NCBI GenBank assembly: GCA_965215885.1
Contig: CBDCEW010000091.1
Coordinates: forward strand, 32,001-96,000
Direction of reading: 5' to 3'
DNA length: 64,000 nt
DNA from: Candidatus Moanibacter sp.
GTDB lineage: Bacteria > Verrucomicrobiota > Verrucomicrobiia > Opitutales > UBA2987
The notes under the pieces are model-generated. The model ran no database searches, was not told the origin of the DNA, and was given only the letters and a program-made list of their open reading frames with translations. Each line of letters starts with the position of its first letter. The first letter of the stretch is position 1. Made by a program: the position numbers and the translations under genes. Positions 7,277-62,016 of the stretch are shown piece after piece.

Positions 7277-7485
7277 GAATCTGTCGGACCCAAAGTCCGT
7301 CAAATTCCTAGCCCGGACATTTCACACACTTCGCAGCGAGACAGCGTAGATCGCTGCGTATCAGGGCCTTTCCGCAGTTCGGCGGGCGACAGTGTGTTGG
7401 AACCCTCTGAGGTCGCCGAGCAAGGGAAGGGGTTGAGACGCAGTGATATCCGTGGTCGTAGCAGAAGGTTTGTGAAATTTTCGGG

Positions 7486-8109
7486 CTAGAGTATCTCCTT
7501 ATAGACCTCCCTTACCTCGATTCGGGCATTGCCGGGAGTAGAGTTTCTGATCTCCTCTGCCACGCTGTGCGCCAGGGGCAGCATCACCGATCGCGGATGG
7601 GATCCGGGCACTTCCAGGGACTGACGTTTTGAGCCCAGAATCGTCAACCCCGCCGCGAAATCCTCCGTTTCGAAACTCTTCCCTTCTTCAAGATTCTCAA
7701 GGTTCCGAATTTCTAGACTCTCAATTGATTCGATGGGAATCGAATTTGATTTCTTCACGAATCTGATCTTTTCTGAGGCCGCGAGGATCCCGTCAGAGAT
7801 CCGAATCTCTGTGTGATGCAGGTTCAGCGCGGTGAGAATTCCCATCAGGATGATAAATATGCCAAGCAGAAAGGGTGGTACGCCCAGGAAGGCGAAGCCG
7901 ATGATGATCCACCGGAAAATGCCGGATTCCGGCAAACTCAGGAGTGGAACCGCGATCCATGTGAACATGAAGAGACAGATCATAATCCCGAAAAGAATCA
8001 CCATGATGCCGTTTTTCAAAGATGGCATGGCATCCGCCTTCGGGAGCCTGTAAACGGTTCCTCGTAGCGTTTGCGATTGCACAATCCCAGGGGGCAGATC
8101 GGTTTTCAC
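7486..8109 (-). CDS. Hypothetical membrane protein (2 TM plus possible PH-like domain)
   Basis: Two hydrophobic segments followed by a beta-rich soluble tail. Confidence 0.65.
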   Translation of the reverse strand: MKTDLPPGIVQSQTLRGTVYRLPKADAMPSLKNGIMVILFGIMICLFMFTWIAVPLLSLPESGIFRWIIIGFAFLGVPPFLLGIFIILMGILTALNLHHTEIRISDGILAASEKIRFVKKSNSIPIESIESLEIRNLENLEEGKSFETEDFAAGLTILGSKRQSLEVPGSHPRSVMLPLAHSVAEEIRNSTPGNARIEVREVYKEIL

Positions 8110-8294
8110 GTAAGGATTTCGGGCGTTAGGCCGGGAATGTCGGGGTCGGCGGGGAAGAAGGGACGCTGGAGGCGACTAAAGGAGACGTCTTTGACAGAGG
8201 CCGGCGTCGGTCCTGGAGTGTCGAGGACGAAGATTCCCTTGGCGGTGGAACCATAGGCGTTGCGATAATTCATTGCACTCCGTGAAAATAGCAC
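8106..8294 (-). pseudogene. C-terminal remnant of an MlrC/M81-family metallopeptidase
   Basis: NYRNAY..AKGIFVLDTPGPT...RLQRPFFPAD resembles the MlrC C-terminus. No N-terminal part is present. Confidence 0.55.
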
Positions 8295-8369
8295 CGAGGG
8301 CGATGCGAGGCTGGGATTTCACCATTTGAAAAGTGGATTGTTACGAGTGCAGGGGAAGTGGGGTGCTCG

Positions 8370-37121: not shown

Positions 37122-38727
37122 CATACGCGTAAACCTTATTTTCGCAACTTAGTCAGATTCAAAGACTTGCGAGGTATTTTGCGGCGGAGTATGAGGGTGT
37201 CTCTATCCTCGAGGTTCCACTCCATTTGTTCGCCCTTTTCTATTTGCTTCGTTTCGACCACAGCGGTGAGGAAATTCGCAGTTGAGCGAGTGCATTTTGG
37301 CCGGGTTATCTTCTCTACTTTTACCGTCTACCCCATTTTTTTTCACTTTGGCAGCATTTTATACTGTACATTCGTTCATATATAGGATTTATCCTTCGGA
37401 TGCAAAGTATAAAAAAAGCTGATTGTATCCGTCAAACCTTCCGTAAGTTGAACCTCACAGCCCTCGCTAAACAGAGTGGTTTTAGAGAGAGGAAATCGCG
37501 CAAGATCTCCCCTCTGAACTTTGTTTTGGCTTTGCTGGCGATGGCTTCTAAGGGGGCCTTGTCCCTTGGCAAAGAAGCCGAGCTTATTGGATTCTTAGCC
37601 AACCGCACCATTTCCAGACAAGCGGTCCAAAAGTGCGCCAAAAAAGCCACCGCTTTTATGACCTTAGTGCTCCTGAGGCTTTTAGAACTTAAAGCTTATG
37701 GGCCTGTGGGCAGAGCTGTTCCAAATTGCATGAGGAGCTTTGAACGGGTTCTCATTGCCGACAGCACTTCGATTGGCTTGCCTAAGGTCCTGGCCCCCTT
37801 CTTCCCCGGAGCGTCCAATCAGACAGGCTCCAAACAGGCTCAACTGAAGATTCAGGCCTATTACGATCTGCGCAATGAATCCTTCGTTGACTTCAGCCTC
37901 AGTAGCTTCCGAAAAAACGATCAGGCTGCTTCCAAAGACATTCTCGCTCTCGCTCAACCCAACGACTTGATCCTGCGCGACTTAGGCTATTTTGTCCTCG
38001 ATGTCTTTAAGCAACTCGATCAGCGCGGCTGCTTCTTTGTGAGTCGTTTGAAAACCGGCACTTGCCTTTTAGCCAACGAAGGCGATGAAGAGCTCGATCT
38101 ACGCAAACTTTTACGTGGCCAAAAGCTTCTCGATATGCCCGTTCGGGTGGGTAAAAAAGCCAAGCTTCCGGTTCGTCTGATCGCCGTCAAACTCCCTCAG
38201 AAGGTGGCCCATAAACGCCGCCGCGAGCATAGACAAAACCGCGACAATAGACTTCGATATACCAGCCGCACCAGCTTCCTTCTCGGTTTCCAAATCTTTA
38301 TTACAAACCTCCATCAGAAAGACTTTAGCCCTAAGCAGATTCTGAGCTTTTACGGGCTTCGCTGGCGCATCGAAATTTTCTTTAAGGCCTTTAAGCAACA
38401 TCTTAATCTCGGTCAGGTCAAAGAGACTACTCCCTACCAGGTTGAGCTTCTTATCTACGCCCGTCTCATCCTCATTACCCACTTACTCAACTTCGTCTAT
38501 GGTCCCCTTAGACACTATTCGAATACCAGTTTGTCCTCTCCTCTGAGTATCCTTAAATTCTCCTACTGGTTTGGCTTCTTTGCTCCCTACTTCTTCATCC
38601 TCTCTCACATTCCCAAAGATCAGATCATCCCCCGATGGCTCAAACAAATCCCCAAACACTGCACCTATGAAAAGCGTTCTCGACTTGATTTCCTCTCTTG
38701 TTTCTTCTCCTTAGGTTAACGCAAATG
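37122..38727 (+). mobile_element. IS4-family insertion sequence (CAT...ATG ends)
   Basis: Imperfect TIR CATACGCGTAAACC / (rc) CATTTGCGTTAACC, lower GC, encloses a transposase. Confidence 0.85.
37400..38719 (+). CDS. IS4-family DDE transposase
   Basis: IADST, LRDLGYF and YGLRWRIEIFFK (YREK). Confidence 0.93.
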   Translation: MQSIKKADCIRQTFRKLNLTALAKQSGFRERKSRKISPLNFVLALLAMASKGALSLGKEAELIGFLANRTISRQAVQKCAKKATAFMTLVLLRLLELKAYGPVGRAVPNCMRSFERVLIADSTSIGLPKVLAPFFPGASNQTGSKQAQLKIQAYYDLRNESFVDFSLSSFRKNDQAASKDILALAQPNDLILRDLGYFVLDVFKQLDQRGCFFVSRLKTGTCLLANEGDEELDLRKLLRGQKLLDMPVRVGKKAKLPVRLIAVKLPQKVAHKRRREHRQNRDNRLRYTSRTSFLLGFQIFITNLHQKDFSPKQILSFYGLRWRIEIFFKAFKQHLNLGQVKETTPYQVELLIYARLILITHLLNFVYGPLRHYSNTSLSSPLSILKFSYWFGFFAPYFFILSHIPKDQIIPRWLKQIPKHCTYEKRSRLDFLSCFFSLG

Positions 38728-38944
38728 CGCCCAGCGGGATCAGAACGTGGTGTTTTTTCAGCGGAATTCAAATATGCCGACTGACTGTGGACAATAGCAC
38801 AGGGTGCCCTCCAAGGAAAGGTGAAATCCGGTTTAAAAGTTGAACCAGTGAACCACTTCGAGCAGATCGGGTACTTGTGGTTCCTAAAAGGAACATTTCC
38901 ATTTTTCGTTTTCAAATTCCCGAGCGGCGGCCAGATTGTCCCTC

Positions 38945-40022
38945 ATGAAGGGCGATCACGCAATGCCGGTTGGGATCATCGGATCCGGGTTCATGGCGCG
39001 GACTTACGCGGAGTGCCTTGCGCGATATGTCGAGGGCGTCGAGCTTCGGGTTGTGGCGGGTGGGAGTCGGGCTCCAGGATTGGCCCGCGAGTACGGAATC
39101 GAGCGACTCGACAGGGCCGAGGAGGTGTTTGATAGGGAAGACATCGAGGCAGTGATCATCGCCACACCGGAGACGATTCACCCGGTGCAGGCGATTGCGG
39201 CGGCACAGGCCGGCAAGCATGTTCTTGTAGAAAAGCCCTTGGCGCCGACCCTCGAACAGTGTAACGCCGTGATTGACGCGTGCCGGAATTCGGGGGTGCG
39301 CCTGATGCAGGTTAAGCACTGTCGCTTTCGCGAAGTGCATCGGCGGGCAATCGAATTACTGCGCGAGGGAAACCTTGGGCCTGTGCGGCAGATACATAAT
39401 CGTACAATGGTGCCGGTCCAATCATCGGAAGCGGGCGTGAGAAAGAAGCCGTTTTACCTCGATCCTTCTGGCGGTGGGCTTTTCATGGGATGCTGCACCC
39501 ACAATTTCGACCTCGTCCGATGGTTGGCGGGCAGCGAGCCGAAACGGGTATTTGCTACGGTCACTTCATACGGTGACCATGCCATCCCGGAATTGACATC
39601 GATGGCGCAGATAGGCTTCGCCAATGAAGCGAAGGCTGCAGGTATGGATAACGGCGGAACTGCCGGATCCTGCGTTTGCGCAGAGCTTGTTCCGTACTGA
39701 GCTTGTTTGTGAAAACGGCGTCCTCGATCTTGACGGGGTAGGGCAGATTCAAGTCGGACAGGACGGTGAATGGCGTAGCATCTGGGAAGTAGCGAGGTTT
39801 GATCCGCAAGATCCCCTGGATCCGCGGAGCCTGGAGGGCTTCTCGGCCATGTTGCAGGAGTTCATCGACGCCAGTCGTGAAGACCGTGAACCATTAGTGA
39901 CCGGAGCGGATGGTCGGGCTGCGGTAGAACTCTGCCTGGCGGCGCGTGAGTCGGCGAAAGCAGGGGTGTGCAGTCGATTTGCCGTTGGGTGGTTAACCGA
40001 GAGCATGCGATTCACGCATTAG
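38945..40022 (+). CDS. Gfo/Idh/MocA oxidoreductase, frameshifted near 39635 (possibly again near 39965)
   Basis: GIIGSGFMA, GKHVLVEKP, GGGLF..CTHNFD. The C-terminal half is in another frame. Confidence 0.85.
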
Positions 40023-40165
40023 CGCAGAAACCGTAACTATCCCCCTCCTCAAGATCCTCCGGGCTCGCCCCGGAGAGTCTCAGGTTTTCTGGCTAAAGGG
40101 ACCGAACCTACCTTTCCTCAAGATCCTCCGGGCTTGCCCCGGAGAGTCTCAGGTTTCTTAGCTAC
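40019..40165 (-). repeat. 44-bp TAG-hairpin repeats directly downstream of the Y1 transposase
   Basis: Units at 40053-40096 and 40122-40165 (69-bp period), plus a truncated inverted unit at 40019-40044. Confidence 0.9.
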
Positions 40166-41013
40166 AGCCGCTCCCACCGATCGAGATATCTCTTTAACGC
40201 TCGCGAATTCAGGTCCCCATACCCGCCGACGTAAGCACTTGGCGTAAAGAGACGATCTACTCCTGCTTGAATAACGTGCTCGCTATGCCTTTCCCACATT
40301 ACCTCTTCAGCAAGGTTCATCAATTCGGACACGATTTTTTCCGGTGCAATTGAAGGATGTCCCCGCATCGCCAAATGCACGTGATCCGGCAAAAAGGACA
40401 CCTTGAGGAGCTTAAACTGATTCTCCTGTTCAGCTTTCTGCCAGCATCGGGTCACAGCAGGACCCGATTCCGAACCGAAAATTCCCTTTCGGGCTGTTGT
40501 TGCGATGACAATGTGGTAACGAAGACAAGTCACTGCATTCGGATTGAGCCGCGATTCATCGCCTGCCTCTTCCGGGAACTCCCGTTGAAAGACAGGCGGT
40601 ATGGCTCTGTCTTCATAACCGTGATGGCGGCTCTGCTTGGAAAGGTATCGGATTACTTGCGACTTTATACTCTTCCCGGATGTGGCTGCGAAATAGCCGC
40701 GTGAGAAGAGACGGGATTTCTCCCGTACTTCGTGGTCTGTCCGTAGGAATTTGCTGACTCGGCCCTTCAGTTTACTCGCTGTTGCGGATACGGTATCGGT
40801 TGGTTTCAGGCTCACTAGCGCTAGGCAGTTTCTTTCATCGGCGGAGAATTCGAGAAGGTGAATTCCGTAAGGATCCAGTAGTTTCTCGATGCGTTCTTTG
40901 TCGAGAGATTTCAGCTCGGACACGGACTTACGGCGATGCGTGTTCCACCGCAGGTAGCAGTGAATAGAGTAAGCGAAGGTTAATGATTCGGCTGTGTAGG
41001 GAGTACGGTGCAC
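40162..41013 (-). CDS. tnpA: Tandem two-domain Y1 (IS200/IS605 TnpA / RAYT-like) HUH transposase
   Basis: Domain 1: YLRWNTHRRK...LKG...LFSRGYF...RYLSKQ. Domain 2: YHIVIATTARK...PDHVHL...LFTPSAY...RYL. Confidence 0.85.
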   Translation of the reverse strand: MHRTPYTAESLTFAYSIHCYLRWNTHRRKSVSELKSLDKERIEKLLDPYGIHLLEFSADERNCLALVSLKPTDTVSATASKLKGRVSKFLRTDHEVREKSRLFSRGYFAATSGKSIKSQVIRYLSKQSRHHGYEDRAIPPVFQREFPEEAGDESRLNPNAVTCLRYHIVIATTARKGIFGSESGPAVTRCWQKAEQENQFKLLKVSFLPDHVHLAMRGHPSIAPEKIVSELMNLAEEVMWERHSEHVIQAGVDRLFTPSAYVGGYGDLNSRALKRYLDRWERL

Positions 41014-41019
41014 AAACTT

Positions 41020-43393
41020 CAGACCTCACTATATTGCCCCTCTAAAGGCACTATGCAATCGCAAGTTTAAATCCCTATTTTTTGCCCAGTCGGAAGATGA
41101 TTCTTCGGCCTGAACCGTCGGGCATCAGTAAGGGCTTCTCATTGAGAGTTTGCAGATACTCAAGCACCACCGCTTGCACCCGAGGGGGATAAGTTGCGGT
41201 GGGGAATAAATGCGCTTCGACCGCACAGCCCCTCTCTATAAGAACGCCGTCACTGTGAGTCAAATTGCGAAACAGATCGTGGTCGTCACGATAGTTGTTG
41301 TAGCGAGCTTTAAAGGGTTCGAGCTGCTTGTAGAAGCTGTTACGGGCGAAGATTTTCAAGGCATCCATGAGGGACTTGTTAGCGGTGTCCAGGCGGACAT
41401 AGTTTTCATCAATGAGGCGCTGCAGCCTCGAGCATTCGGTGTCGATTTGCTCCAGTTCGAGTTGGAGGGCTTTGAGGGCCTGATCGAGTCGACGGATCTT
41501 TTCGCCCCTTGAGGCGCTTTTGCCCGGGTGGGCATGCTCGGCCAGGAGCAGTCTTTTCAATTCTTCGGTGCATTGCTGTTTTTGCTTCAGGAGGGCTTTG
41601 GCGGCACCGCTTTTCTCCTGCTTCTCCTCAAGGTGTTGGGCTAATCGCTTGTAGTGGACGGTGCGATAAGAGGTGATCTGATTAATCCCAAAGTGCTTAT
41701 CGAGGTATTTGAAGTCATTCTCCTGAATCCAGCGACTGAACATCCCTTTGATTACCTCTTCATTTCGGGCCTGCTGATCGGTCGCCAGGATGCTCACGGT
41801 AATGGTTCGATTTTTTGGATTGGTCGCCTCCACGATCCACTGCACCAGTTGAGGATTTTTCTTCCAGGGGCCCCGCTGATAGCGAAGATGATACTCCTGG
41901 AGATCTTCGGCATGGTTGCGCGCGCGCTGCAGGCGCAACTGCCCGTCGATCCGTTGGAGGGGCTGGGCGCTGGCCTTGTAACCTTTTTCCCAGGTAATGA
42001 TTTCGAGTTGAGGATGCTCCACGATGGCTTCGTAAAACCACTCCGCGGCGATCGCCCGGTCCACGTAAATGCTCACCTTCTTATCAGCCGGCAACTGCAC
42101 CAGCTCGAGCATCGCTTCGCAGTTGGGGATAAACCGTTCCCTTATATCCTCATAGTTGTCAGTGCTCGCAAAATAGACCGGATAGCCCTTGAGGGTATGA
42201 ATAAAATCGCTGTGGAGCGCTTTGTCGGCCAGACGGATACCCGGACACCATCCCGCCAGCACCTTGCTCATTCCGGTGTAATGTTTGGTGTGCGGATCAT
42301 AATAAAAGCTCTCTTCATCCGAAGCATTCAGGCCCCTCGCGTTCACTCTGAGGATCTCTCTTAAAAGCCCTTCATCGGCCAGGGCGCTAAGGCTTTGGCG
42401 TTGCAGATAGGGGGTATACAGGACTCGCCCGATGAGTTTTTGCAGGTCTTCGAGATCGAGCAGTTTGCTCTGCTCGATATTGACCGCGGCCAACAACCCG
42501 CAAGCCACCCATTGTTTCAAAAGCCAGCCCTCTTCGCGATCAATCTGAGCGACTTCTCTGAGCGCGGCACTGAACAGAAGTACTCCCAGGTGCCGATACC
42601 ATTGCACCGCTTCGGAGCTCTCCCTCGAAAAATCGGGAGACTCCTTGCGATTGTCCCCTTCGCTTTCGGGGCTATTTTCTGCTTCTTGCTCCTGTTCGTC
42701 CCTCCCCGAGTCCTCCGGGCAATCCCAGGGAGTCTCCCGATTTTGCGCCCTCTCGGCTTCGGCCTCCTTTGCCCGGGCCTCTTTAAGCTCCTTAAAGACA
42801 GGGCGCAAAGTTTCCCCACTGAGGTTAACTCCGAACACCTCCTCGATCTCCCCCCGTATCTTCTTGCTGTAGCCATACCGACTCTCCCCATAGATCTGCC
42901 CGAAGCGCACCCGCCCAAAACTCCGGATTTCCCTCGTCAATTTGCGATGAGCGCTGCGTCCCGCCAGCACTCGCGCTAAGGTCTCGGCATCTCCGCTTTG
43001 AAGCGCCTCCCCCCACCGCTTCATCGTTTTGGGGTCAACCTCAAATTGCTTCTCTAAGCGCCCTTTCTTCAACCCCGCATTGTAGAGGCGCCCCACCAAT
43101 AGCTTGAATTCAACTTGCTCCCGATCGTCCTCTACGACTTCAAAAAGCTCATGCCCGTAATAGACGTGCAGTTTGCCTTCGCTCAGATCCCGATAGACCG
43201 TGATCGAGGGATTACCCTTGTCCACTCCAAGGATGCACTGTAAGAAGGTCTCTTCTTTGACGGTAGGTTTCTCCATTTTTCTTCGAATTTGATGGTTCGA
43301 AGATGAAGCCTACCGTTTTCTTTAGCTCTTAAAAGCCGGGAATTGTATCTGCGATTGCCCCCTGCCCGCCAACCCGCATGATAGCGAGTTCTG
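41020..43393 (-). mobile_element. 2374-bp IS, copy 1 (unclassified large DDE transposase)
   Basis: TIR CAGACCTCACTAT / CAGAACTCGCTAT. Near-identical to 53153-55528. Flanks AACTT/TGGTT give no TSD. Confidence 0.9.
41075..43276 (-). CDS. Putative DDE transposase (733 aa)
   Basis: HTH-like VDPKTMKRW, YYDPH, YVDRA and RWIQENDFKYL. Enclosed by TIRs and duplicated in the window. Confidence 0.85.
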   Translation of the reverse strand: MEKPTVKEETFLQCILGVDKGNPSITVYRDLSEGKLHVYYGHELFEVVEDDREQVEFKLLVGRLYNAGLKKGRLEKQFEVDPKTMKRWGEALQSGDAETLARVLAGRSAHRKLTREIRSFGRVRFGQIYGESRYGYSKKIRGEIEEVFGVNLSGETLRPVFKELKEARAKEAEAERAQNRETPWDCPEDSGRDEQEQEAENSPESEGDNRKESPDFSRESSEAVQWYRHLGVLLFSAALREVAQIDREEGWLLKQWVACGLLAAVNIEQSKLLDLEDLQKLIGRVLYTPYLQRQSLSALADEGLLREILRVNARGLNASDEESFYYDPHTKHYTGMSKVLAGWCPGIRLADKALHSDFIHTLKGYPVYFASTDNYEDIRERFIPNCEAMLELVQLPADKKVSIYVDRAIAAEWFYEAIVEHPQLEIITWEKGYKASAQPLQRIDGQLRLQRARNHAEDLQEYHLRYQRGPWKKNPQLVQWIVEATNPKNRTITVSILATDQQARNEEVIKGMFSRWIQENDFKYLDKHFGINQITSYRTVHYKRLAQHLEEKQEKSGAAKALLKQKQQCTEELKRLLLAEHAHPGKSASRGEKIRRLDQALKALQLELEQIDTECSRLQRLIDENYVRLDTANKSLMDALKIFARNSFYKQLEPFKARYNNYRDDHDLFRNLTHSDGVLIERGCAVEAHLFPTATYPPRVQAVVLEYLQTLNEKPLLMPDGSGRRIIFRLGKK

Positions 43394-43396
43394 TGG

Positions 43397-43591
43397 TTAG
43401 CTTAGAAACCTAATAATCCCCAGGGCAAGCCTGGGGGATTTGAAAATATGGGGTCTCCCGAATTAGCGAAGGAAACCTAACCATCCCCGGGACGAGCCCC
43501 GGGGATTGCCCTTCCGACTACCGGCACCGACCCAACCCATTCTCAAAGATCCTCCGGGCTTGCCCCGGAGAGTCTCAGGTTTTCCGGCTAA
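43397..43591. repeat. TAG-hairpin repeat cluster (two + units, one - unit)
   Basis: 43397-43440, 43463-43507 and 43548-43591. Confidence 0.9.
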
Positions 43592-43601
43592 AGAGCCTGT
43601 A

Positions 43602-43664
43602 TCACTTAGACAGTTCGAAACCGGCAATCAGGAAGTGTGGGTGACGATTGAAAGCGCGGGTGAT
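43602..43664 (-). pseudogene. 3' remnant of a vapC-like gene
   Basis: Translates ITRAFNRHPHFLIAGFELSK*, versus ITGAFSFDHHFLIAGFELFE* at 46106. Confidence 0.6.
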
Positions 43665-43780
43665 TCAGTTATTAAACCACGTGTTGACGGTTGCCCTTGG
43701 ATATCTGGCCAGTATAAGTCGGTAGGCATGGAAGTTAATCAGGTTATCGGTGCACAATATAAGGATCCGGGACAGCGCCA

Positions 43781-45811
43781 ATGAGCAAAGAATTTGATCT
43801 GGTAGTAGTCGGCGGCACGCCTGGGGGCGTGGCTGCCGCTATACGCGCGGCCCGGGAAGGCCTGCGTGTTCTTCTCACGCATTATCACGCTCACCTTGGC
43901 GGCCTTCTTTCCAGCGGTATTGGGGCGTTGGATACACAATACGGTGGTAAGCGCGCTCCCATCCATGGCGAATTCTGTGAGCGCCTGATTGACCACTACC
44001 GCGATACCTATGGCGCCGGCTCAGAACAGCTGAAGATCTGCCTTTACCATGGGCATTCCAAGTTCTGGGAGTTGGAAAAAGACCGTGGAGGAAAACTCGT
44101 GGAAGAGGTCGATGAACGCGAAGTGGCGGCGTTGCCGAACGAGTCGGCCTACTACTACGGCAAGATGCGTTTTGAGGCGAAGGTGGCGGAGAAGATCATC
44201 AACGAACTGGTCGCCTCCGAAGAAGGTATCGAGGTCTGGAAGAACTGCTATCCGACGGAGGTGGAACGGACCGGCCGGATGTTAACCGCGGTATACCTGA
44301 AATGGTTCGACGGCCGGGAACGCGCGCGGGTGGAAGCAAAGGCGTTCATCGACGCCTCCTATGAGGGCGACCTCATGGCGGCGGCTGGCGCCCCTTACCG
44401 AGTCGGCCGGGAAAGCCGATCGGAATTTAACGAGATCCATGCCGGCCGGATATTCACGGCTCTGCATTTCGCCGATGATGAGGAAGTCGGCTATCCAAGT
44501 GAGGCTGTCGTGGGCAAGCTGAACCTGGAACCCTACCGGGCCATCTCGCAGCAGATTCTGGCCGGAAGCACGGGCGGTGGAGATCACAGGATTCAAGCTT
44601 ATAACTACCGTGTTAATCTCAGTTCGGATCCCGAAAATCGATTGATGCCGGAGAAACCTGCCAATTATGACCGCGACACCTACCTCGCACTTCGGGATCG
44701 ATGGAGTTTGGGAATGGTGCTCCCAAACAAGAAACGCGGTTGGAATACGGCCAACCTGCCGGGTGGCGGCTATGAGTATCCGGACGGCGATTGGGAGACG
44801 CGCCGAGCGGTCGCACAACGGCATAAGGACCATGCTCTCGGGTTGCTCTATTTCCTGCAGCACGACGAGGAGGTTCCGCAGGCCTTACAGGAACAGTTTC
44901 AGCAACTGGGTTTGCCGGAGGATGAGTTCACGGAGAACGGGAATTTCCCTCACGAAATGTATGTGCGCGAAGGCAGGCGGCTGGAAGGGCGCTACATGCT
45001 CAAGGAATCTGATTGTACGCTCGCCCCGGAACTTGGCCGAGCTCCCATACTTCACGACAGTATCGCGATCTGCGAATGGTCCATGGATTCGCACTCCGTG
45101 AGTTTCGAAAAGATGCCCGGCGGAAGGCACGAAGGTAAAATCCTGCTCACGGAGATGACCCGGCCGTCTCAGGTACCTTACCGCACGCTCCTCCCACCCG
45201 ACATTGATAACTTGCTCGTGCCGGTCTGTCTTTCGGCGACCCATGTCGCATGGGGCACGGTCAGACTGGAACCGACCTGGATGCACATCGGAGAGTCGGC
45301 AGCGCATGCTGTCGTATTGGCTCTGGAGAACGGCGTGGCTCCGGCCCATGTAGATGTTAACGAGCTGCAGAGGCGATTAGTCGAAGCCGGAATAATGATT
45401 TCGTTTTTTAATGAATTCGATATGGCAACCGGGGAACCGTGGGTGCCCGCCGTTCTGTATCTCGGAACGAAGGGATTCTTTGCTGACTACGATGCCCGCC
45501 CGAATGATCCGCTCACTGCCGCCGAGGCCATAGTCTGGGCAAGCGCATTTGCGGAGCTATTGGATGGGAGCCTTGACACGACCAAACTGGCGAGGCGCAT
45601 CCATGGGCTGAGTGAGAAAAGAGATGCCGTAACCGTTACCGAATTCGCCAGGCTTCTCGAGGACGAGCTTCGCTACCGGGACCGGTTGCCTTCGGAAGGC
45701 GTCGCTCGGGGCGTCGGGCGGAACCATGAACCCGACCACCCCATTCTCAGGAAGGAGGCCTGCCGTATATTGTATGACTGGCTGAAACACGTTAATGTAC
45801 GTATTGGTTAG
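43781..45811 (+). CDS. FAD-dependent oxidoreductase
   Basis: VVGGTPGG, DASYEGD, IQAYNYR, YVREGRR and HVAWGTVRLEP. Confidence 0.9.
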   Translation: MSKEFDLVVVGGTPGGVAAAIRAAREGLRVLLTHYHAHLGGLLSSGIGALDTQYGGKRAPIHGEFCERLIDHYRDTYGAGSEQLKICLYHGHSKFWELEKDRGGKLVEEVDEREVAALPNESAYYYGKMRFEAKVAEKIINELVASEEGIEVWKNCYPTEVERTGRMLTAVYLKWFDGRERARVEAKAFIDASYEGDLMAAAGAPYRVGRESRSEFNEIHAGRIFTALHFADDEEVGYPSEAVVGKLNLEPYRAISQQILAGSTGGGDHRIQAYNYRVNLSSDPENRLMPEKPANYDRDTYLALRDRWSLGMVLPNKKRGWNTANLPGGGYEYPDGDWETRRAVAQRHKDHALGLLYFLQHDEEVPQALQEQFQQLGLPEDEFTENGNFPHEMYVREGRRLEGRYMLKESDCTLAPELGRAPILHDSIAICEWSMDSHSVSFEKMPGGRHEGKILLTEMTRPSQVPYRTLLPPDIDNLLVPVCLSATHVAWGTVRLEPTWMHIGESAAHAVVLALENGVAPAHVDVNELQRRLVEAGIMISFFNEFDMATGEPWVPAVLYLGTKGFFADYDARPNDPLTAAEAIVWASAFAELLDGSLDTTKLARRIHGLSEKRDAVTVTEFARLLEDELRYRDRLPSEGVARGVGRNHEPDHPILRKEACRILYDWLKHVNVRIG

Positions 45812-45827
45812 GGTGGGGCCTCGCCGG

Positions 45828-46094
45828 TTAGCATAGGAACCTAACTATCCCCAGGGCAAGCCTGGGGGATTTGATGTTGTGAGGGAGGACTCCTGAAGTA
45901 GCGAAGGTAACATAAGCATCCCCGGGACGAGCCCGTGGGATTGCCCTTCCGGCTACCCGACCGACCCAACCCACTCCAAAAGATCCTCCGGGCTTGTCCC
46001 GGAGAGTCTCAGGTTTTTCGGCTGCCCGGACCGATCGACCCACTCCAAAAGATCCTCCGGGCTTGTCCCGGAGAGTCTCAGGTTTTTCGGCTAA
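45828..46094. repeat. TAG-hairpin repeat cluster (two + units, two - units)
   Basis: 45828-45871, 45898-45942, 45982-46025 and 46051-46094. Confidence 0.9.
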
Positions 46095-46105
46095 AGAACT
46101 CAGAG

Positions 46106-46538
46106 TTACTCAAACAGCTCAAAACCGGCGATCAGGAAGTGATGATCAAAGCTGAAAGCGCCGGTGATTCCCAATTTCTTCATAACGGCGAAGGAAACGC
46201 CATCGACCATGCTGATATCCTGCCCCCGATATTGTGCCATTAGATCGAGGCCGGCCGTCTCATCTTTTCGCGATGAGTCGTGAATCACAAAGGAGCCCGA
46301 TTGGTAAATAGACCGGATTCTCTTAACCGCAACATCGGCGCTGCTTCTCCGCGAAAGGAGGGTTGCTGTCTCAACCAGGACCAGATTCGTCGTCACCAGG
46401 GGTATCGCTTCTTTCCTGATTGATGACCAGCGTGACTGCGCATCATCGAAATATTGATCACGCTTCAGGTAACTGAGGTTAATATTGATCACGCTTCAGG
46501 TAACGAGCAAGAAAAGCGCCTGTGTCTACGAAGATCAT
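46106..46538 (-). pseudogene. vapC: PIN-domain toxin (VapC-like) disrupted by a 31-bp insertion
   Basis: MIFVDTGAFLA start overlaps the antitoxin stop (ATGA). VLVET, SMVDGVSF and FSFDHHF. A 24-bp duplication plus 7 bp shifts the frame. Confidence 0.85.
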
Positions 46539-53052: not shown

Positions 53053-53152
53053 GGCAATTGCGTGGATCCTTTGTTTTTCACGATTTTTGGAACTACGAAT
53101 AGCGCGAATCTGCGCAAATGGGGAATGAATCCGTCCCGGTCGGACCGAAGCT

Positions 53153-55528
53153 CAGACCTCACTATATTGCCCCTCTAAAGGCACTATGCAATCGCAAGTT
53201 TAAATCCCGATTTTTTGCCCAGTCGGAAGATGATTCTTCGGCCTGAAACCGTCGGGCATCAGTAAGGGCTTCTCATTGAGAGTTTGCAGATACTCAAGCA
53301 CCACCGCCTGCACCCGAGGGGGATAAGTTGCGGTGGGGAATAAATGCGCTTCGACCGCACAGCCCCTCTCTATAAGAAACGCCGTCACTGTGAGTCAAAT
53401 TGCGAAACAGATCGTGGTCGTCACGATAGTTGTTGTAGCGAGCTTTAAAGGGTTCGAGCTGCTTGTAGAAGCTGTTACGGGCGAAGATTTTCAAGGCATC
53501 CATGAGGGACTTGTTAGCGGTGTCCAGGCGGACATAGTTTTCATCAATGAGGCGCTGCAGCCTCGAGCATTCGGTGTCGATTTGCGCCAGTTCGAGTTGG
53601 AGGGCTTTGAGGGCCTGATCGAGTCGACGGATCTTTTCGCCCCTTGAGGCGCTTTTGCCCGGGTGGGCATGCTCGGCCAGGAGCAGTCTTTTCAATTCTT
53701 CGGTGCATTGCTGTTTTTGCTTCAGGAGGGCTTTGGCGGCACCGCTTTTCTCCTGCTTGTCCTCAAGGTGTTGGGCTAATCGCTTGTAGTGGACGGTGCG
53801 ATAAGAGGTGATCTGATTAATCCCAAAGTGCTTATCGAGGTATTTGAAGTCATTCTCCTGAATCCAGCGACTGAACATCCCTTTGATTACCTCTTCATTT
53901 CGGGCCTGCTGATCGGTCGCCAGGATGCTCACGGTAATGGTTCGATTTTTTGGATTGGTCGCCTCCACGATCCACTGCACCAGTTGAGGATTTTTCTTCC
54001 AGGGGCCCCGCTGATAGCGAAGATGATACTCCTGGAGATCTTCGGCATGGTTGCGCGCGCGCTGCAGGCGCAACTGCCCGTCGATCCGTTGGAGGGGCTG
54101 GGCGCTGGCCTTGTAACCTTTTTCCCAGGTAATGATTTCGAGTTGAGGATGCTCCACGATGGCTTCGTAAAACCACTCCGCGGCGATCGCCCGGTCCACG
54201 TAAATGCTCACCTTCTTATCAGCCGGCAACTGCACCAGCTCGAGCATCGCTTCGCAGTTGGGGATAAACCGTTCCCTTATATCCTCATAGTTGTCGGTAC
54301 TCGCAAAATAGATCGGATAGCCCTTGAGGGTATGAATAAAATCGCTGTGGAGCGCTTTGTCGGCCAGACGGATACCCGGACACCATCCCGCCAGCACCTT
54401 GCTCATTCCGGTGTAATGTTTGGTGTGCGGATCATAATAAAAGCTCTCTTCATCCGAAGCATTCAGGCCCCTCGCGTTCACTCTGAGGATCTCTCTTAAA
54501 AGCCCTTCATCGGCCAGGGCGCTAAGGCTTTGGCGTTGCAGATAGGGGGTATACAGGACTCGCCCGATGAGTTTTTGCAGGTCTTCGAGATCGAGCAGTT
54601 TGCTCTGCTCGATATTGACCGCGGCCAACAACCCGCAAGCCACCCATTGTTTCAAAAGCCAGCCCTCTTCGCGATCAATCTGAGCGACTTCTCTGAGCGC
54701 GGCACTGAACAGAAGTACTCCCAGGTGCCGATACCATTGCACCGCTTCGGAGCTCTCCCTCGAAAAATCGGGAGACTCCTTGCGATTGTCCCCTTCGCTT
54801 TCGGGGCTATTTTCTGCTTCTTGCTCCTGTTCGTCCCTCCCCGAGTCCTCCGGGCAATCCCAGGGAGTCTCCCGATTTTGCGCCCTCTCGGCTTCGGCCT
54901 CCTTTGCCCGGGCCTCTTTAAGCTCCTTAAAGACAGGGCGCAAAGTTTCCCCACTGAGGTTAACTCCGAACACCTCCTCGATCTCCCCCCGTATCTTCTT
55001 GCTGTAGCCATACCGACTCTCCCCATAGATCTGCCCGAAGCGCACCCGCCCAAAACTCCGGATTTCCCTCGTCAATTTGCGATGAGCGCTGCGTCCCGCC
55101 AGCACTCGCGCTAAGGTCTCGGCATCTCCGCTTTGAAGCGCCTCCCCCCACCGCTTCATCGTTTTGGGGTCAACCTCAAATTGCTTCTCTAAGCGCCCTT
55201 TCTTCAACCCCGCATTGTAGAGGCGCCCCACCAATAGCTTGAATTCAACTTGCTCCCGATCGTCCTCTACGACTTCAAAAAGCTCATGCCCGTAATAGAC
55301 GTGCAGTTTGCCTTCGCTCAGATCCCGATAGACCGTGATCGAGGGATGACCCTTGTCCACTCCAAGGATGCACTGTAAGAAGGTCTCTTCTTTGACGGTA
55401 GGTTTCTCCATTTTTCTTCGAATTTGATGGTTCGAAGATGAAGCCTACCGTTTTCTTTAGCTCTTAAAAGCCGGGAATTGTATCTGCGATTGCCCCCTGC
55501 CCGCCAACCCGCATGATAGCGAGTTCTG
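53153..55528 (-). mobile_element. 2376-bp IS, copy 2, with 5-bp TSD AAGCT; transposase frameshifted near its 3' end
   Basis: AAGCT at 53148-53152 and 55529-55533. ORF 53294-55411. Two 1-bp insertions relative to copy 1. Confidence 0.92.
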
Positions 55529-55544
55529 AAGCTACTGAACCCCT

Positions 55545-57298: not shown

Positions 57299-58617
57299 CA
57301 GTACTGTCCGGTTATAAGTCAAACAACTCCAACTGTTTAGGAATGCGGTGTTCATTGAAAGTGTAATCGGTTTCTGTAAGTAGTTCAGTCATAGGAGTTT
57401 TCTCAAATAGGGTGAAGCTGAGAATCTGTAGGATTTTGTGCAAACTGATCTCCAGGCGAAGGCGTTTGCGGATGATGGCGATGAGCACATAGACGCTGAC
57501 GGCAATCCAGATTTGAGTCTTCACAGCATTCTCGGAGGTGCCGAAAAAGCTCTTGATGCGCAAGTGCTGTTTGATCCATTTGAAGAACAATTCGATCTGC
57601 CAGCGTAAACGGTAAATCTGGGTGATGATTATGGCTGGGAGGGCAAACTGGTTGGTGAGAAACACGAAGCGCTCGGAACTGTCGGGATCGAGGTAAGTGA
57701 TACGCCGGAGTCTTTCGGGGTAGGCCTTGGCAGGATAGAAGCTGACCAGGGCAACGGTCTGGTCCGAACGCAGACCGGTTGATTTGTCGACCTTTTGAGA
57801 GTAGAGGCGGCGAAACTGAAAGCCGCGGCGGGCGCGTGTGACGAAGAAAGAACCGCATTGTGCGATCCGATAGAGGCGCTCGTAATGCAGATAGGCTCGG
57901 TCCATTACATAGTAAGCACCGGCCTCGGGGATGATGAGATCCAGAATGTTTACGTCGTGAACTTTTCCATCGGTAATCTCGATAAAATAAGGGATAGAGC
58001 CTCTGAGATCGAGAAGCGTATGGACCTTCACCGCCCCCTTGTGCTTGCGGAAACGTGCCCACGGGAAGAGTGATAGACATAGATCGATCGTGGTGGAGTC
58101 CAGAGCGTAGAGCGTATTGTCCAGGTCGATGCCCAGATCCTCGTTTGAATACAAAGGACGAGCCATTGCGATGAGGACCTGTGCAAAGTCGGCGTAGATG
58201 CGCCAGTCTCGTTTCTCGTTGGCATCGGCGAGCGTGCTTTTGGATACTCCGCTTCGAATCCCTGCGTGGTATAGTTTTGGTTGTACTGCCCGCAGGCAGG
58301 TTTCGATGTCGCGCAGACTCTCCCGGTAGGTCAACTCGGCAAAACCCATGCAGAGAAATTGTTCGAAGCAACTGAACTTTTGAACTTTGTAGTCGCCTCC
58401 GTAGCGTTGGACGCAACGATGGAACTGATGGCGCGGAAGATAATCTATGATTTGAGAAAAAACGAATCGACCTGTATACATGATTTGGACCCTCGAAATT
58501 TTTGAGAGTCCACAAGGCTTTTTGCAATTTCAAGTCGAAAACAGCAGAAATCATATGTAAAATGTTGGTTATCAATCGATTAACCTGCGTTCCTAGAAAA
58601 ACAACCGGACAGTAGTG
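57299..58617 (-). mobile_element. IS4-family insertion sequence with 9-bp TSD TTATTCTTT
   Basis: TIR CAGTACTGTCCGGTT / CACTACTGTCCGGTT. TSD at 57290-57298 and 58618-58626. Confidence 0.95.
57312..58481 (-). CDS. IS4-family transposase (DUF4372 + DDE)
   Basis: LDSTTIDL, MDRAY and YRLRWQIELFFKWIKQHL. Confidence 0.95.
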   Translation of the reverse strand: MYTGRFVFSQIIDYLPRHQFHRCVQRYGGDYKVQKFSCFEQFLCMGFAELTYRESLRDIETCLRAVQPKLYHAGIRSGVSKSTLADANEKRDWRIYADFAQVLIAMARPLYSNEDLGIDLDNTLYALDSTTIDLCLSLFPWARFRKHKGAVKVHTLLDLRGSIPYFIEITDGKVHDVNILDLIIPEAGAYYVMDRAYLHYERLYRIAQCGSFFVTRARRGFQFRRLYSQKVDKSTGLRSDQTVALVSFYPAKAYPERLRRITYLDPDSSERFVFLTNQFALPAIIITQIYRLRWQIELFFKWIKQHLRIKSFFGTSENAVKTQIWIAVSVYVLIAIIRKRLRLEISLHKILQILSFTLFEKTPMTELLTETDYTFNEHRIPKQLELFDL

Positions 58618-58624
58618 TTATTCT

Positions 58625-59030
58625 TTAGCTTAGAAGCCTAACGATCCCCAGGGCAAGCCTGGGGGATTCGAGAGTCTCAAGTTTTTCGGCTACCAAGACC
58701 GATCCAACCTTTCCAGAAGATCCTCCGGGCTCGCCCCGGAGAGTCTCAGGTTTTTCGGCTACCAACGCCGCTCCAACCATTCCAGAAGATCCTCCGGGCT
58801 CGTCCCGGAGAGTCTCAGGTTTTTCGGCTACCAACACCGATCCAACCATTCCAGAAGATCCTCCGGGCTCGCCCCGGAGAGTCTCAGGTTTTTCGGCTAC
58901 CAACGCCGCTCCAACCATTCCAGAAGATCCTCCGGGCTCGCCCCGGAGAGTCTCAGGTTTTTCGGCTACCAGCACCGATCCAACCATTCCAGAAGATCCT
59001 CCGGGCTTGACCTGGAAAGCATTCTGGTTT
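58625..59030. repeat. TAG-hairpin cluster: one + unit and a 69-bp tandem array of - units
   Basis: + unit at 58625-58668. - units at 58719, 58788, 58857 and 58926, with a degenerate one at 58995. Confidence 0.95.
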
Positions 59031-59047
59031 AGACGCTTCAGGCACGT

Positions 59048-59897
59048 ATGAAATTCTCGAGACTTGAAAACGAGCAGAGGGAGTTCTTCGACCAGAACGG
59101 ATACATGGTCGTGCGCAAGGCTTTGGACGCCGATATGTTGGAGCGGGTGACGGCGGCATGTGACGGAGTGGTGGAGAAGAATTACAAGGATCTCGGCTCC
59201 CGTCGTGCTAGCCTATTAAACGTCCTTCCCGAGGATGATGTCTTCCTGACCCTCCTTACGTGGGAAAAAACCGTGCCGCTGGTTGTCCAGTTGCTGAGTT
59301 TCGACCTTCGCCTCGCAAAGTCACACCTCATCTACAACTTCCCGGACCCTCCGAATGCCAAACCGCCGACCAACTGGCACCGCGATTTCACGGAGAGTCC
59401 ATTTGATCTCGGTCCCCACCGCTACCCGCGTCTGCTCATCAAGATCGCCTATCAGTTGACCGACACGACTTCGCTCAGCGGGAATACGATTCTTGTGCCC
59501 GGGAGCAATAACTACAACCGGCGACTCGAAATTCCAGAGGGGCAGAACGACCCGGATGGCGCCGTCGAGCTCGAACTTCAAGCGGGCGACGCCTTTCTCT
59601 TCGAGAGCCGTACTTTCCACCGAATCGGGCTCAATCGAAGCGAAGTCCCCAGAAAATGCCTGATGATGGGATACTCCTATGGCTGGATCAGTCCGCTCGA
59701 CTACGACGTGCAGCCGGATTGGCTGTTGGAGAAGGTAACCGACCCCATTGCGCGGCAACTCATCGGCGCCAATAAAAGGCGGGAGTACGGAAGTAGACCC
59801 ATGGGCGCTTAGAGAATGGGCTGAAGAGCACGGCATCGAGCGTTCCTCTGATATCGAGTACGAGCGGGTGATGGCGAGCGCCGCGCCAGGGCCGTAG
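59048..59897 (+). CDS. PhyH family Fe(II)/2OG dioxygenase, probable frameshift near 59790
   Basis: FFDQNGY, WHRD, VPGS, AGDAFLF..RTFH and NRS..PRK. Confidence 0.88.
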
Positions 59898-60055
59898 CTC
59901 TTTGAGGGGGTTTTTCCGGAGGCGTTATCGGAGAGCTTGATCGCCTTACCCAAAAGAAGAGGTAAGGTACCAGACTTATTTGCGCTAAGAAAAGGGTCTA
60001 TCACTCGCGAGCGAAGGTTAGTTATTCGGAGGTATAGTTAGTACGGTAGACGTCT

Positions 60056-60099
60056 TTAGCGTAGATACCTAGCTATCCCCAGGGTAAGCCTGGGGGATT
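60056..60099 (+). repeat. Single TAG-hairpin repeat unit
   Basis: TTAGCGTAGATACCTAGCTAT-CCCCAGGGTAAGCCTGGGGGATT. Confidence 0.85.
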
Positions 60100-60219
60100 T
60101 GAGATTATGGGGGGAGACTGCCGACACGGCTTCTCTTCTCCACGGATGGACTTACCAGTTTAGATGCGGCTTCCCCTATATGTTACACTAACGCGGGTGC
60201 AGGAACGTTCGAAGCAAAC

Positions 60220-62016
60220 ATGAAGATCATTCTGCGTATCATCGGCATCGCGCTCCAGCACCGCTGGTATATGGTGGCGGCGTTTACGGCCATGTGTGGG
60301 GCAACAACGGCCTACATGTTCCTGCCGAAGTACATCGGAGCCGCGGTTGACAAGCTCGCAGAGATCTTCCGGGACGGGGGCGGTTCCCCATCCGATCTGT
60401 TTTCCATAGCGTTGACGATAGTGGTTCTCTACGTCGTGAGAGGGCTTCTTTCCTATTTGCAGATGTACTTCGGCGACGCTCTGTCGCAGTATGTGGCCTA
60501 CGACATTCGCAACAAGTTCTACGATCATGTTCAGCACCTGAGCTTCGGAAGCCACGATCGGCTCCATACTGGGAATCTGATGTCGCGCGCCATTGTGGAT
60601 GTGGAGAACATCCGGCGATTCATCAACATGGGATTGGTTCGGGCTCCCTATTACGGCGCGCTATTCCTCATTATCGCGATCATCCTGATTCGGCTCGATT
60701 GGCTCCTTGGACTGGCCAGTGTCAGTTTCCTTCCCCTGGTTGCCTACCAATCCGGGTCGGTTCGTTTAAAAATGAGGAAGTTGTGGCTCGTCGCCCAGGA
60801 GAAGATGGCCGATTTGACCACTGTTCTGCAGGAGAACCTCACCGGAGTGCGGGTGGTGAAGGCATTCGCATCGGAAAGCTATGAGGAGGCGCAGTTCGAC
60901 TCCCGGAACGTGGAAGTCGCCACCGGAATGGTGGCGGCGGAGAAGCTTCGCGCCGAGAATATGGCGTTTACCCTGTTCACCTTTCAAGTCTCTCTGGGGC
61001 TGATCCTCTGGTTTGGCGGTTGGCGGGTCATGAATGGGCACCTGTCGCTCGGTGGGCTGACGCAGTTCATCATCTACATGCAAATGATGGCACTGCCGGT
61101 ACGATTGATCGGGTGGATCGTGAACGCTTACGCTCGAGCGGTCTCAGCTGGGGAGCGGTTTTTTGAGATTCTCGATGCCGAATCGGAGGTCAGGGAGCTG
61201 CCAGGCGCCGCGGAGATGCCTCGAGTGAGCGGTCATGTTCAGTTCAACAATCTGAATTTTGAATACGACCGTGGCGCGACGGTACTCAACGGGATCGACA
61301 TCGATGCGAGTCCGGGAAATGTAGTCGCGCTCCTGGGACCACCGGGAAGTGGAAAGACAACAATTGTAAACCTCCTTTCGCGTTTTTACGAAATCGGGCC
61401 GGGCGAGATCACGATCGACGGCATCGACATCAGAACCGTCACGCTCGAATCATTGCGTCGCAATATTGGAATCGTTCATCAGGACGTTTTTCTATTCTCC
61501 ACTTCGATACGGGAGAACATCGCCTACGGACGTGCCAACGCTTCCATGGAAGCTATCATTCGGGCAGCCAAAATCGCACAGCTCCACGATTTCATCGAGA
61601 GTCTCGACGAGGGTTACGACACGGTCATCGGCGAACGTGGCTCAACTCTATCCGGCGGACAACGACAGCGGCTATCGATCGCCCGTGCGATCTTGCTCGA
61701 TCCCCCGATATTGGTCCTCGACGATTCAACCTCAAGCGTCGATGCCGAGACCGAGCACCTCATTCGCCAGGCGATGGAATCGGTCATGCGGAACCGAACA
61801 ACCTTCGTCATCGCGCATCGGCTGAGTACGATTCATCGGTCAGATATCATTTTGGTTTTACGAAACGGCTCAATCGTGGAACGAGGCACGCATCGGGAAC
61901 TCCTCGCAGCCGACGGTCTTTACCGTGAGATCTATGAGCTGCAGCTGCGTCCACAGGAAGAGGTGATGCGCGATTTCGAAGTCCCGGTCGCGATTCCAGG
62001 GGAGGCAACCGGATGA
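60220..62016 (+). CDS. ABC exporter TMD-NBD half transporter (subunit 1 of heterodimer)
   Basis: GPPGSGKT, LSGGQRQR and LDDSTS (degenerate catalytic Glu). Confidence 0.95.
   Translation: MKIILRIIGIALQHRWYMVAAFTAMCGATTAYMFLPKYIGAAVDKLAEIFRDGGGSPSDLFSIALTIVVLYVVRGLLSYLQMYFGDALSQYVAYDIRNKFYDHVQHLSFGSHDRLHTGNLMSRAIVDVENIRRFINMGLVRAPYYGALFLIIAIILIRLDWLLGLASVSFLPLVAYQSGSVRLKMRKLWLVAQEKMADLTTVLQENLTGVRVVKAFASESYEEAQFDSRNVEVATGMVAAEKLRAENMAFTLFTFQVSLGLILWFGGWRVMNGHLSLGGLTQFIIYMQMMALPVRLIGWIVNAYARAVSAGERFFEILDAESEVRELPGAAEMPRVSGHVQFNNLNFEYDRGATVLNGIDIDASPGNVVALLGPPGSGKTTIVNLLSRFYEIGPGEITIDGIDIRTVTLESLRRNIGIVHQDVFLFSTSIRENIAYGRANASMEAIIRAAKIAQLHDFIESLDEGYDTVIGERGSTLSGGQRQRLSIARAILLDPPILVLDDSTSSVDAETEHLIRQAMESVMRNRTTFVIAHRLSTIHRSDIILVLRNGSIVERGTHRELLAADGLYREIYELQLRPQEEVMRDFEVPVAIPGEATG

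Follow-up and report, generated by a model that had tools for sequence, protein, structure and literature searches.

A conserved single-chain Y1 fusion with split catalytic motifs and flanking inverted hairpins: a candidate one-site HUH enzyme of REP-like repeats

In Candidatus Moanibacter sp., a single ORF codes for two TnpA-like Y1 domains, with the tyrosine helix of an IS200/IS605 transposase retained in the first domain and the HUH motif in the second. This tandem-Y1 protein is a real, conserved new variant of the Y1 HUH systems. We consider it probable (roughly two chances in three) that the conserved fusion, together with the inverted hairpins that flank its gene, represents a one-active-site HUH nickase and strand-transferase which recognises and spreads those repeats. 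By homology, nicking by the protein is well supported, and we infer that it also joins and spreads the repeats. The flanking repeat system and an IS just upstream of the start codon are additions beyond a preliminary description of the protein. Positions are those of the window, i.e. the whole stretch of 64,000 nt that was analysed.

The tandem-Y1 protein and its divided catalytic motifs

The gene and the parts of its product are as follows.

40162..41013, minus strand: tandem-Y1 gene, single-chain TnpA pseudo-dimer, 283 aa, GTG start
40612..40986, minus strand: domain 1, residues ~10-134, without HUH, Tyr helix present
40819..40830, minus strand: dead HUH position of domain 1 (N62-C63-L64-A65; ERNCLAL)
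40621..40647, minus strand: Y123-x3-Q127-x2-H130-H131 of domain 1, predicted nucleophile and metal ligands
40165..40545, minus strand: domain 2, the HUH donor, residues ~157-283
40375..40386, minus strand: HUH of domain 2, D210-H211-V-H213
40174..40188, minus strand: degenerate helix D of domain 2, Y276-x3-W280, without Gln

The reading of this ORF as two TnpA-like Y1 domains, already given in the preliminary description, was confirmed: PF01797 matches the protein in two stretches, and each half separately matches solved TnpA chains. By NCBIfam the protein is an IS200/IS605 transposase (104 bits, cut-off 55), and the RAYT model NF047646 reaches 26.2 bits at a cut-off of 80. The two halves appear to be old repeats; in a direct BLASTP comparison they align with an E value of 0.15 over 29 residues only. 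Domain 1 retains the dimer proline P71 and the helix K81-x-K83-G-x-x-S87, and its C-terminal helix reads Y123-L-S-K-Q127-S-R-H130-H131. Domain 2 retains R175, P220 and the W/F256 position and ends with K-R-Y276-L-D-R-W280, which has a Trp where Gln is expected.

A sequence search retrieved 95 proteins, nearly all of them 40-57% identical and four closer, and a profile search of 50%-identity representatives gave 105 matches at 1e-30, including fragments. Among the 150 profile-search matches listed, the maximum length is 368 aa; 47 of these 150 were aligned together with five loci. An alignment of 100 full-length homologues, from which partial sequences, apparently frameshifted ones and the pair P0214 and P0222 were excluded, shows that the division of motifs belongs to the whole family. 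Y123, Q127, H131 and H211 occur in 100 of 100 sequences each and H213 in 99 of 100, while HxH at the domain-1 HUH position is found in none of the 100 and Gln at the position of W280, four residues after the domain-2 Tyr, in none of 99. The complementary losses in the two domains, as described before for the single protein, thus recur throughout, and they persist among homologues down to ~20% identity. An HUH motif in both domains of the homologues, which had been named as the sign of simple decay, did not occur. Values of dN/dS are 0.05-0.39 in both halves for 10 pairs (a simple codon count, with several pairs near saturation), which places both halves under purifying selection. Because of this selection, and because the losses are family-wide, the split is not a matter of decay. 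The earlier interpretation as an asymmetric enzyme with one site gains support from the preservation of the motif split across 100 homologues.

In a quick tree, all 40 domain-2 rows form one clade (SH-aLRT 99) and the domain-1 rows lie on one side of a weak branch (66). Both halves group with two single-domain proteins of IS200 type, not with rows that resemble subclass 1.2 (SH-aLRT 97), for an outgroup that is thin, with 8 single or symmetric rows of which one (L058) was read in the wrong frame. P0214 and P0222 are symmetric tandem fusions with both Y1 domains intact and similar to subclass 1.2. They group with a single-domain protein outside the family (SH-aLRT 97; one outgroup row mistranslated), and their fusion is apparently independent of the split-motif family. 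Single-domain relatives, sought with domain 2 alone, were found in none of 4 candidates, and no relatives were found in viral contigs. The signal of residue coevolution (202 sequences, effective number 145) was too noisy for contacts between the domains to be read from it.

According to record titles, the hosts of the homologues are mostly Planctomycetota, and also Acidobacteriota and others. The family has stayed hidden because the records label these genes as ordinary IS200 or RAYT transposases. In its own genome (G000) the tandem-Y1 gene is single-copy. A short N-terminal remnant of a second tandem-Y1 gene was found at G000:C78:20736-20877, directly beside a GATC/TCAG repeat unit.

The AlphaFold2 model of the protein is one compact unit (pLDDT 93.3, pTM 0.90), with IS608 and ISDra2 TnpA as its closest structural matches. 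Model residues 157-281 superpose on residues 10-132 of the trans-form chain 2vju_A with 1.6 A over 123 residues (Z 11.5), helix D included. The chain 2fyx_A, the cis form according to the available text of PMC3597680, aligns with the model only up to residue 269. As the trans-form chain covers helix D and the cis-form chain stops short of it, the domain-2 helix of the model is in the swapped position, as in IS608. Monomeric 4er8_A aligns to chain residue 122 with the domain-2 helix and to residue 106 without it (Z only 5.6), as would be expected if this helix covered the dead domain-1 site. Another model, built without the domain-2 helix so as to force an alignment of domain 1, aligned again through domain 2 only. 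On the proposal that a structure would bring the domain-1 Tyr near the domain-2 HUH, the model offers a confident single unit and the placement of the domain-2 helix on the trans-form IS608 chain, and by its pseudo-symmetry Tyr123 would be positioned over His211/His213. Both halves have a proline after the HUH strand, as in IS200 dimers, which is absent from TnpAREP. Our guess, after helix C of TnpAREP, is that domain 1 might bind the hairpin through its K-x-K-G-x-x-S helix.

Repeat units with the grammar of an IS200/IS605 right end

The gene is accompanied by hairpin-forming repeat units, which also occur elsewhere in the window.

40122..40164, plus strand: unit adjoining the 3' end of the gene, with GATC as guide, then hairpin, linker and TCAG; cut predicted after 40152
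40053..40095, plus strand: second downstream unit, GATC/TCAG, 69 nt period
41015..43393, minus strand: unrelated multicopy IS between the upstream repeat unit and the start codon, absent from related strains
43398..43440, minus strand: upstream unit, AATC/TTAG; predicted cut after 43410
43465..43507, minus strand: second upstream unit, AATC/TTAG, one stem mismatch
43548..43590, plus strand: oppositely oriented unit of the upstream cluster, GATC/TCAG
45829..46093: dispersed cluster of four units, two per strand
58626..58968: dispersed cluster of one AATC/TTAG unit (minus strand) and four tandem GATC/TCAG units (plus strand), 69 nt period
60057..60099, minus strand: single degenerate unit, two of three guide pairs

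Read on the strand with the CTTGY loop, a unit comprises, in this order, a guide of 4 nt, a stem of 7 bp, a linker of 4 nt, the tetranucleotide and G-N6-GCTA. With this order of parts the REP-like units reproduce the grammar of an IS200/IS605 right end. The guide at the foot of the unit is variable (AATC, GATG, AATG, GATC), and at 16 nt from the stem the opposite strand has a GTAG/TTAG motif. In the units' own genome the pairing rule set out below holds for 93 of 158 candidate hairpins, as opposed to 2 of 160 on the opposite strand with the RCAAG loop; a reading of the repeats as GTAG-type REPs or as a left end, which would use that opposite strand, was rejected on these counts.

The strongest covariation outside the stem is that of the guide with the tetranucleotide, where two pairs are Watson-Crick in 92% of 59 types. 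Guide bases 1 and 2 pair crosswise with site bases 2 and 1, guide base 4 pairs with site base 4, and site base 3 is free. For IS608, the available text of PMC3201880 and PMC5934647 gives the first two of these pairs, leaves the third base unpaired, and describes base triplets that involve the two bases following the hairpin; a third guide pair would follow from the same two sources together with PMC3479197. All three pairs are present in 178 of 232 units. At the level of locus types they are found in 48 of 70, compared with 15.0 +/- 3.1 after shuffling and with none of 10,000 shuffles as high, a figure which is no true probability since the loci are related. The 48 of 70 were obtained with a linker of 4 nt, and other offsets gave at most 8 of 70. 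Furthermore, the second linker base tracks guide base 1 (A with T in 35 and G with G in 14 of 70), like the triplets of IS608. Guide and predicted cleavage site thus change together as the published IS608 pairing rule demands, and such compensatory changes would point to selection for being cut.

An internal control is provided by a single-domain IS200 that ends with guide AATG, hairpin, 4-nt linker and TTAC. Eight of its nine copies diverge right behind TTAC, which is the site predicted by the same pairing rule. This IS200 is active and near-identical in all its copies, and has no tnpB (G000:C2:12509-12871 and 8 further sites, L061-L069). Its hairpins are similar to the repeat units except for an additional base in the loop, and its left end lies after TT[AG]A.

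A family of units with the guide GCTG and GC[AG]C as tetranucleotide differs in both partners of a pair that is otherwise constant, and its members occur as inverted pairs of ~250 bp. It makes up about half of the 93 units, and none of its members is adjacent to the tandem-Y1 gene. In these REPIN-like elements two inverted GCTG units surround a long internal hairpin (for example at G000 C98:56816-57011 and C75:53811-54006); 12 pairs could be aligned and several others are split by IS insertions. In units with a CATC guide, the tetranucleotide is apparently shifted by one base, behind a 5-nt linker (G000:C32:23295, C80:25272, C85:38703). The third pair does not hold at the distant loci L045, L077, L083 and L085, where AATC is opposite TTCA. 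The repeat units are extragenic, with 8 of the 93 rule-meeting units inside long ORFs.

Hairpins occur within 1 kb of the gene at 42 of 46 homologous loci, and 4 of 46 have no perfect unit nearby. Near the gene 233 hairpins were counted in 83,655 nt, versus 16 in 263,944 nt further off. They are often tandem arrays with a period of roughly 60-75 nt. Most of the distant-group loci examined carry similar arrays with other loops; these are clear at 9 of 11 loci, with close-group loci and a repeat of L011 among the 11. For three new loci from the host phylum, one has no unit and one has a single unit with two of the three pairs. When 41 related genomes were searched with the unit pattern of the own genome, it matched in two (38 and 21 copies), and these are the only two of the 41 that carry the tandem-Y1 gene. 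A looser pattern has 46 matches in four of five gene-bearing genomes, two of which had already contributed loci; here the fourth pair is present in 46 of 46 and the first in 43 of 46. Empty sites gave no example of a move, by a unit or by the gene, at the predicted cut, and no joint at a predicted cut was seen when four runs were compared over the array at 57800-60800. The own genome has 29 Y1 (PF01797) matches, and other Y1 genes of the genome could serve some of the units. About 19 further PF01797 matches are longer class-2 proteins (YxxxNP-type) and fragments (for example C30:23356, C59:10306 and C105:427749).

The stop codon of the gene overlaps the GCTA tail of the adjoining downstream unit. 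Its start codon is separated from the upstream units by the IS, which has 42 alignments over 1.5 kb in the genome. In contigs from two runs of one study the IS is absent and the gene start is joined to the repeat cluster. This IS-free allele has the gene bracketed by two repeat units in inverted orientation, and its start codon comes 17 nt after the cut predicted in the upstream one. The IS itself has a 733-aa ORF that barely meets PF21804 (27.1 bits), and most of its ~40 copies are flanked by 5-bp direct repeats. The copy upstream of the gene has unlike 5-mers on its two sides, the left one missing from the IS-free allele; other copies may have caused this as an artefact of polishing. One more copy of the IS is located at ~53150-55530.

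On the other side of the gene, an IS4-family transposase is encoded at 37400-38719 and is followed by an oxidoreductase gene (38936-40022) that is split over two frames, at which related runs differ by single-base gaps. Neither a conserved partner gene nor TnpB was found at E 1e-8 when the largest ORF on each side of the loci was compared (95 ORFs). One distant locus, L045, lies between TIR and NACHT genes (L045:1572-3671, 7150-9249), and another, L047, beside a reverse transcriptase (L047:6476-8197); neither arrangement recurs at other loci. Rfam has no match over 39500-46500.

Proposed mechanism and alternatives

The chain is predicted to fold like an IS608 dimer, in which Tyr123, Gln127 and His131 of domain 1 would join His211/His213 of domain 2 to make up one complete metal site. 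The reciprocal site is predicted to be dead. We propose that the protein would bind a folded repeat unit on single-stranded DNA, where the 4-nt guide would pair with the tetranucleotide located 4 nt behind the hairpin. Tyr123 would then cut 3' of the tetranucleotide, between TYAS and G; the hairpin side would end in a 3'-OH, and the side of G-N6-GCTA would carry the 5'-phosphotyrosine. As there is no second site for a helix swap in the style of IS608, resolution of this adduct would take place where it formed, through religation or attack by an incoming 3'-OH. Same-site resolution has been proposed for monomeric TnpAREP, according to the available text of Messing et al. One-ended events of nick-and-copy would generate tandem arrays and dispersed units, and rarely would the gene be moved along with its adjacent units.

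In the available text of He et al. 2013 (PMC3597680), the H64A/Y127F heterodimer of IS608 cleaves the right end without strand transfer, and strand transfer in IS608 requires rotation to the cis site. In the natural protein, Tyr123 cannot have such a cis site. Given that the trans-only heterodimer shows no strand transfer, the joining step would require an adaptation or a second molecule. We put forward, tentatively and at somewhat less than even odds, that with this family an IS200 transposase became a REP-spreading enzyme for a second time, independently: a single-chain frozen dimer that cuts and rejoins single-stranded DNA at the guided tetranucleotide, performs one-ended nick-and-copy of its hairpin units without a helix swap and at times copies its own gene.

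The preliminary description had also held that the enzyme does not act as a symmetric IS, and the single copy of the gene and the inverted, right-end-like units around it argue in the same direction. It is nevertheless conceivable that the gene is an autonomous element, in which two fused molecules cut inward-facing units on opposite strands and so move the gene like an IS. We regard this as unlikely. Related copies share the gene and its adjacent units amid different neighbouring genes, as such an element would, but the shared sequence extends to units outside the predicted cuts. The predicted cuts face the gene upstream at 25 of 36 loci and downstream at 27 of 37, yet the nearest units face it on both sides at only 18 of 31. 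The distribution is patchy across phyla and genomes elsewhere carry 1-4 divergent paralogues; however, near-identical copies occur in no genome examined, unlike the 9-copy IS200, and a left-end-type unit is not seen at the gene.

In Y2 HUH enzymes, which include IS91 transposases, relaxases and Rep proteins, a single HUH is served by a pair of catalytic tyrosines. The tandem-Y1 protein might likewise have two tyrosines for its one metal site, Tyr123 in trans and Tyr276 in cis, which flip-flop as in Y2 Rep proteins and relaxases and so start and end a rolling-circle copy. This would supply the joining step that a one-tyrosine enzyme is missing, and we consider it a little less likely still. Tyr276 is frequent among the relatives (87 of 95 proteins of the first homologue set, 74 of 79 close homologues), but among distant members only 8 of 20 have Tyr and 7 have Phe. 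It is absent in the Planctomycete subgroup L047-L053, where units still flank the gene, and Gln never occurs four residues behind it. A cis state is documented for IS608 TnpA in the available text of PMC3597680, whereas our model places the domain-2 helix in the trans position.

It is rather improbable that the protein has been domesticated for binding or nicking hairpins in a host role (regulation, RNA stability or fork processing), with the repeats spread by host recombination or by another Y1 enzyme. Single copy, purifying selection and extragenic units would all be compatible with such a role, as would the presence of other Y1 genes and the inability of the engineered one-site heterodimer to join strands (PMC3597680, as far as its available text goes). 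The gene is, however, rare and patchy, with one copy each in 3 of 400 further genomes from the host phylum, and has no conserved neighbour; the repeats track the gene among relatives, and the compensatory changes in guide and cleavage site would imply selection for being cut. Finally, that a duplicated IS200 tnpA has simply decayed, or is read through by chance, is very improbable and refuted by conservation: although IS200 genes often decay (PMC6006769, in its available text) and the genome is IS-rich with an IS directly upstream, the same complementary losses recur in every aligned homologue, dN/dS is well below 1 in both halves, and the joint fold is predicted with high confidence.

Relation to known systems and significance

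The tandem-Y1 family is placed outside IS200/IS605, class-2 RAYTs, subclass 1.2 and class 3 on their defining features. With IS200/IS605 TnpA (IS608, ISDra2, Sulfolobus IS200; PDB 2vju, 2xqc, 2f4f) it shares the fold of each half, the dimer proline, in the model the swapped helix D, HUH and YxxxQ chemistry split over two subunit-equivalents, and probably the guide-directed grammar of the cleavage site including the two bases 3' of the hairpin. IS200/IS605 transposases, however, are homodimers with two sites and with HUH and YxxxQ in each domain of ~140 aa, while the tandem-Y1 protein is one chain with one predicted site. IS200/IS605 elements have a left and a right end on the same strand and exist as multiple near-identical copies, in contrast to the right-end-like arrays, mostly on opposite strands, of a gene that has one copy and a short remnant and no adjacent tnpB. 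The same division of labour is found in the engineered TnpA(H64A)-TnpA(Y127F), where, in the available text of PMC3597680, one subunit has the Tyr without HUH and the other HUH without a working Tyr helix. That pair is a two-chain laboratory construct, whereas the tandem-Y1 protein is natural, single-chain and conserved across phyla; by this analogy the latter is probably best read as a natural version of the trans-active IS608 heterodimer.

RAYT/TnpAREP REPtrons (E. coli 4ER8; class 2 of Quentin) are similar in having a low-copy gene, flanking and dispersed extragenic hairpins with some inverted pairs, one active site per molecule and ligands spaced as Tyr-x3-(N/Q)-x3-His. In E. coli TnpAREP, Y115 and the metal ligands N119 and H123 (PMC3479197, from its available text) are spaced as Y123, Q127 and H131. 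RAYTs differ in being one-domain monomers with a cis site and YxxxNP, as opposed to two domains and YxxxQxxHH, and in a GT[AG]G foot with CT cleavage at a distance, as opposed to a variable guide and a predicted fixed 4-nt site. The tandem-Y1 system is best read as REPtron-like, with site selection of the IS608 type and an origin separate from that of RAYTs.

As far as the available text of Quentin et al. 2018 describes it, subclass 1.2 also has YxxxQxxHH, a signature which the tandem-Y1 protein carries only in its HUH-less domain. Proteins of that subclass have a single domain (median 148 aa) with HUH and Tyr together and generally no flanking structures, unlike the flanked tandem-Y1 gene and its 283-aa product. 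Class 3 in the same text shares REP-like flanks and Planctomycete and Acidobacterial hosts, but has NHVH and YV-x-x-EQ in a single domain (median 178 aa) and CnGA-footed structures, in place of DHVH and split motifs. By its description in the available part of Bertels et al. 2017, IS200 Group 3 is similar in being IS200-like, non-duplicating and repeat-associated. Unexpectedly long proteins were discarded by Quentin et al. 2018, going by the available text. No tandem form is mentioned there, nor in the available text of Bertels 2017/2022, Di Nocera 2013, Corneloup 2021 and Altae-Tran 2023, and five taxon names gave no match in a keyword search of the two Quentin supplements. Our literature search, with subscription papers and ISfinder beyond its reach, found no description of a split tandem-Y1 family.

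How REP and REPIN repeats multiply is not yet settled, one reason being that TnpAREP of E. coli, a monomer, has only a loose cleavage preference for CT. The tandem-Y1 family likewise has one predicted site, but since its repeats retain the full guide and cleavage code of IS608, the cut can be predicted to the exact base and the joining of strands becomes directly testable. The protein would be a natural counterpart of the cleave-only, one-site heterodimer, with which the cis/trans rotation model and Y1 chemistry without rotation could be tested. If the proposed function is true, it would provide a 283-aa single-chain ssDNA nickase/ligase that can be retargeted by a DNA guide, and a tractable model for the multiplication of REP sequences.
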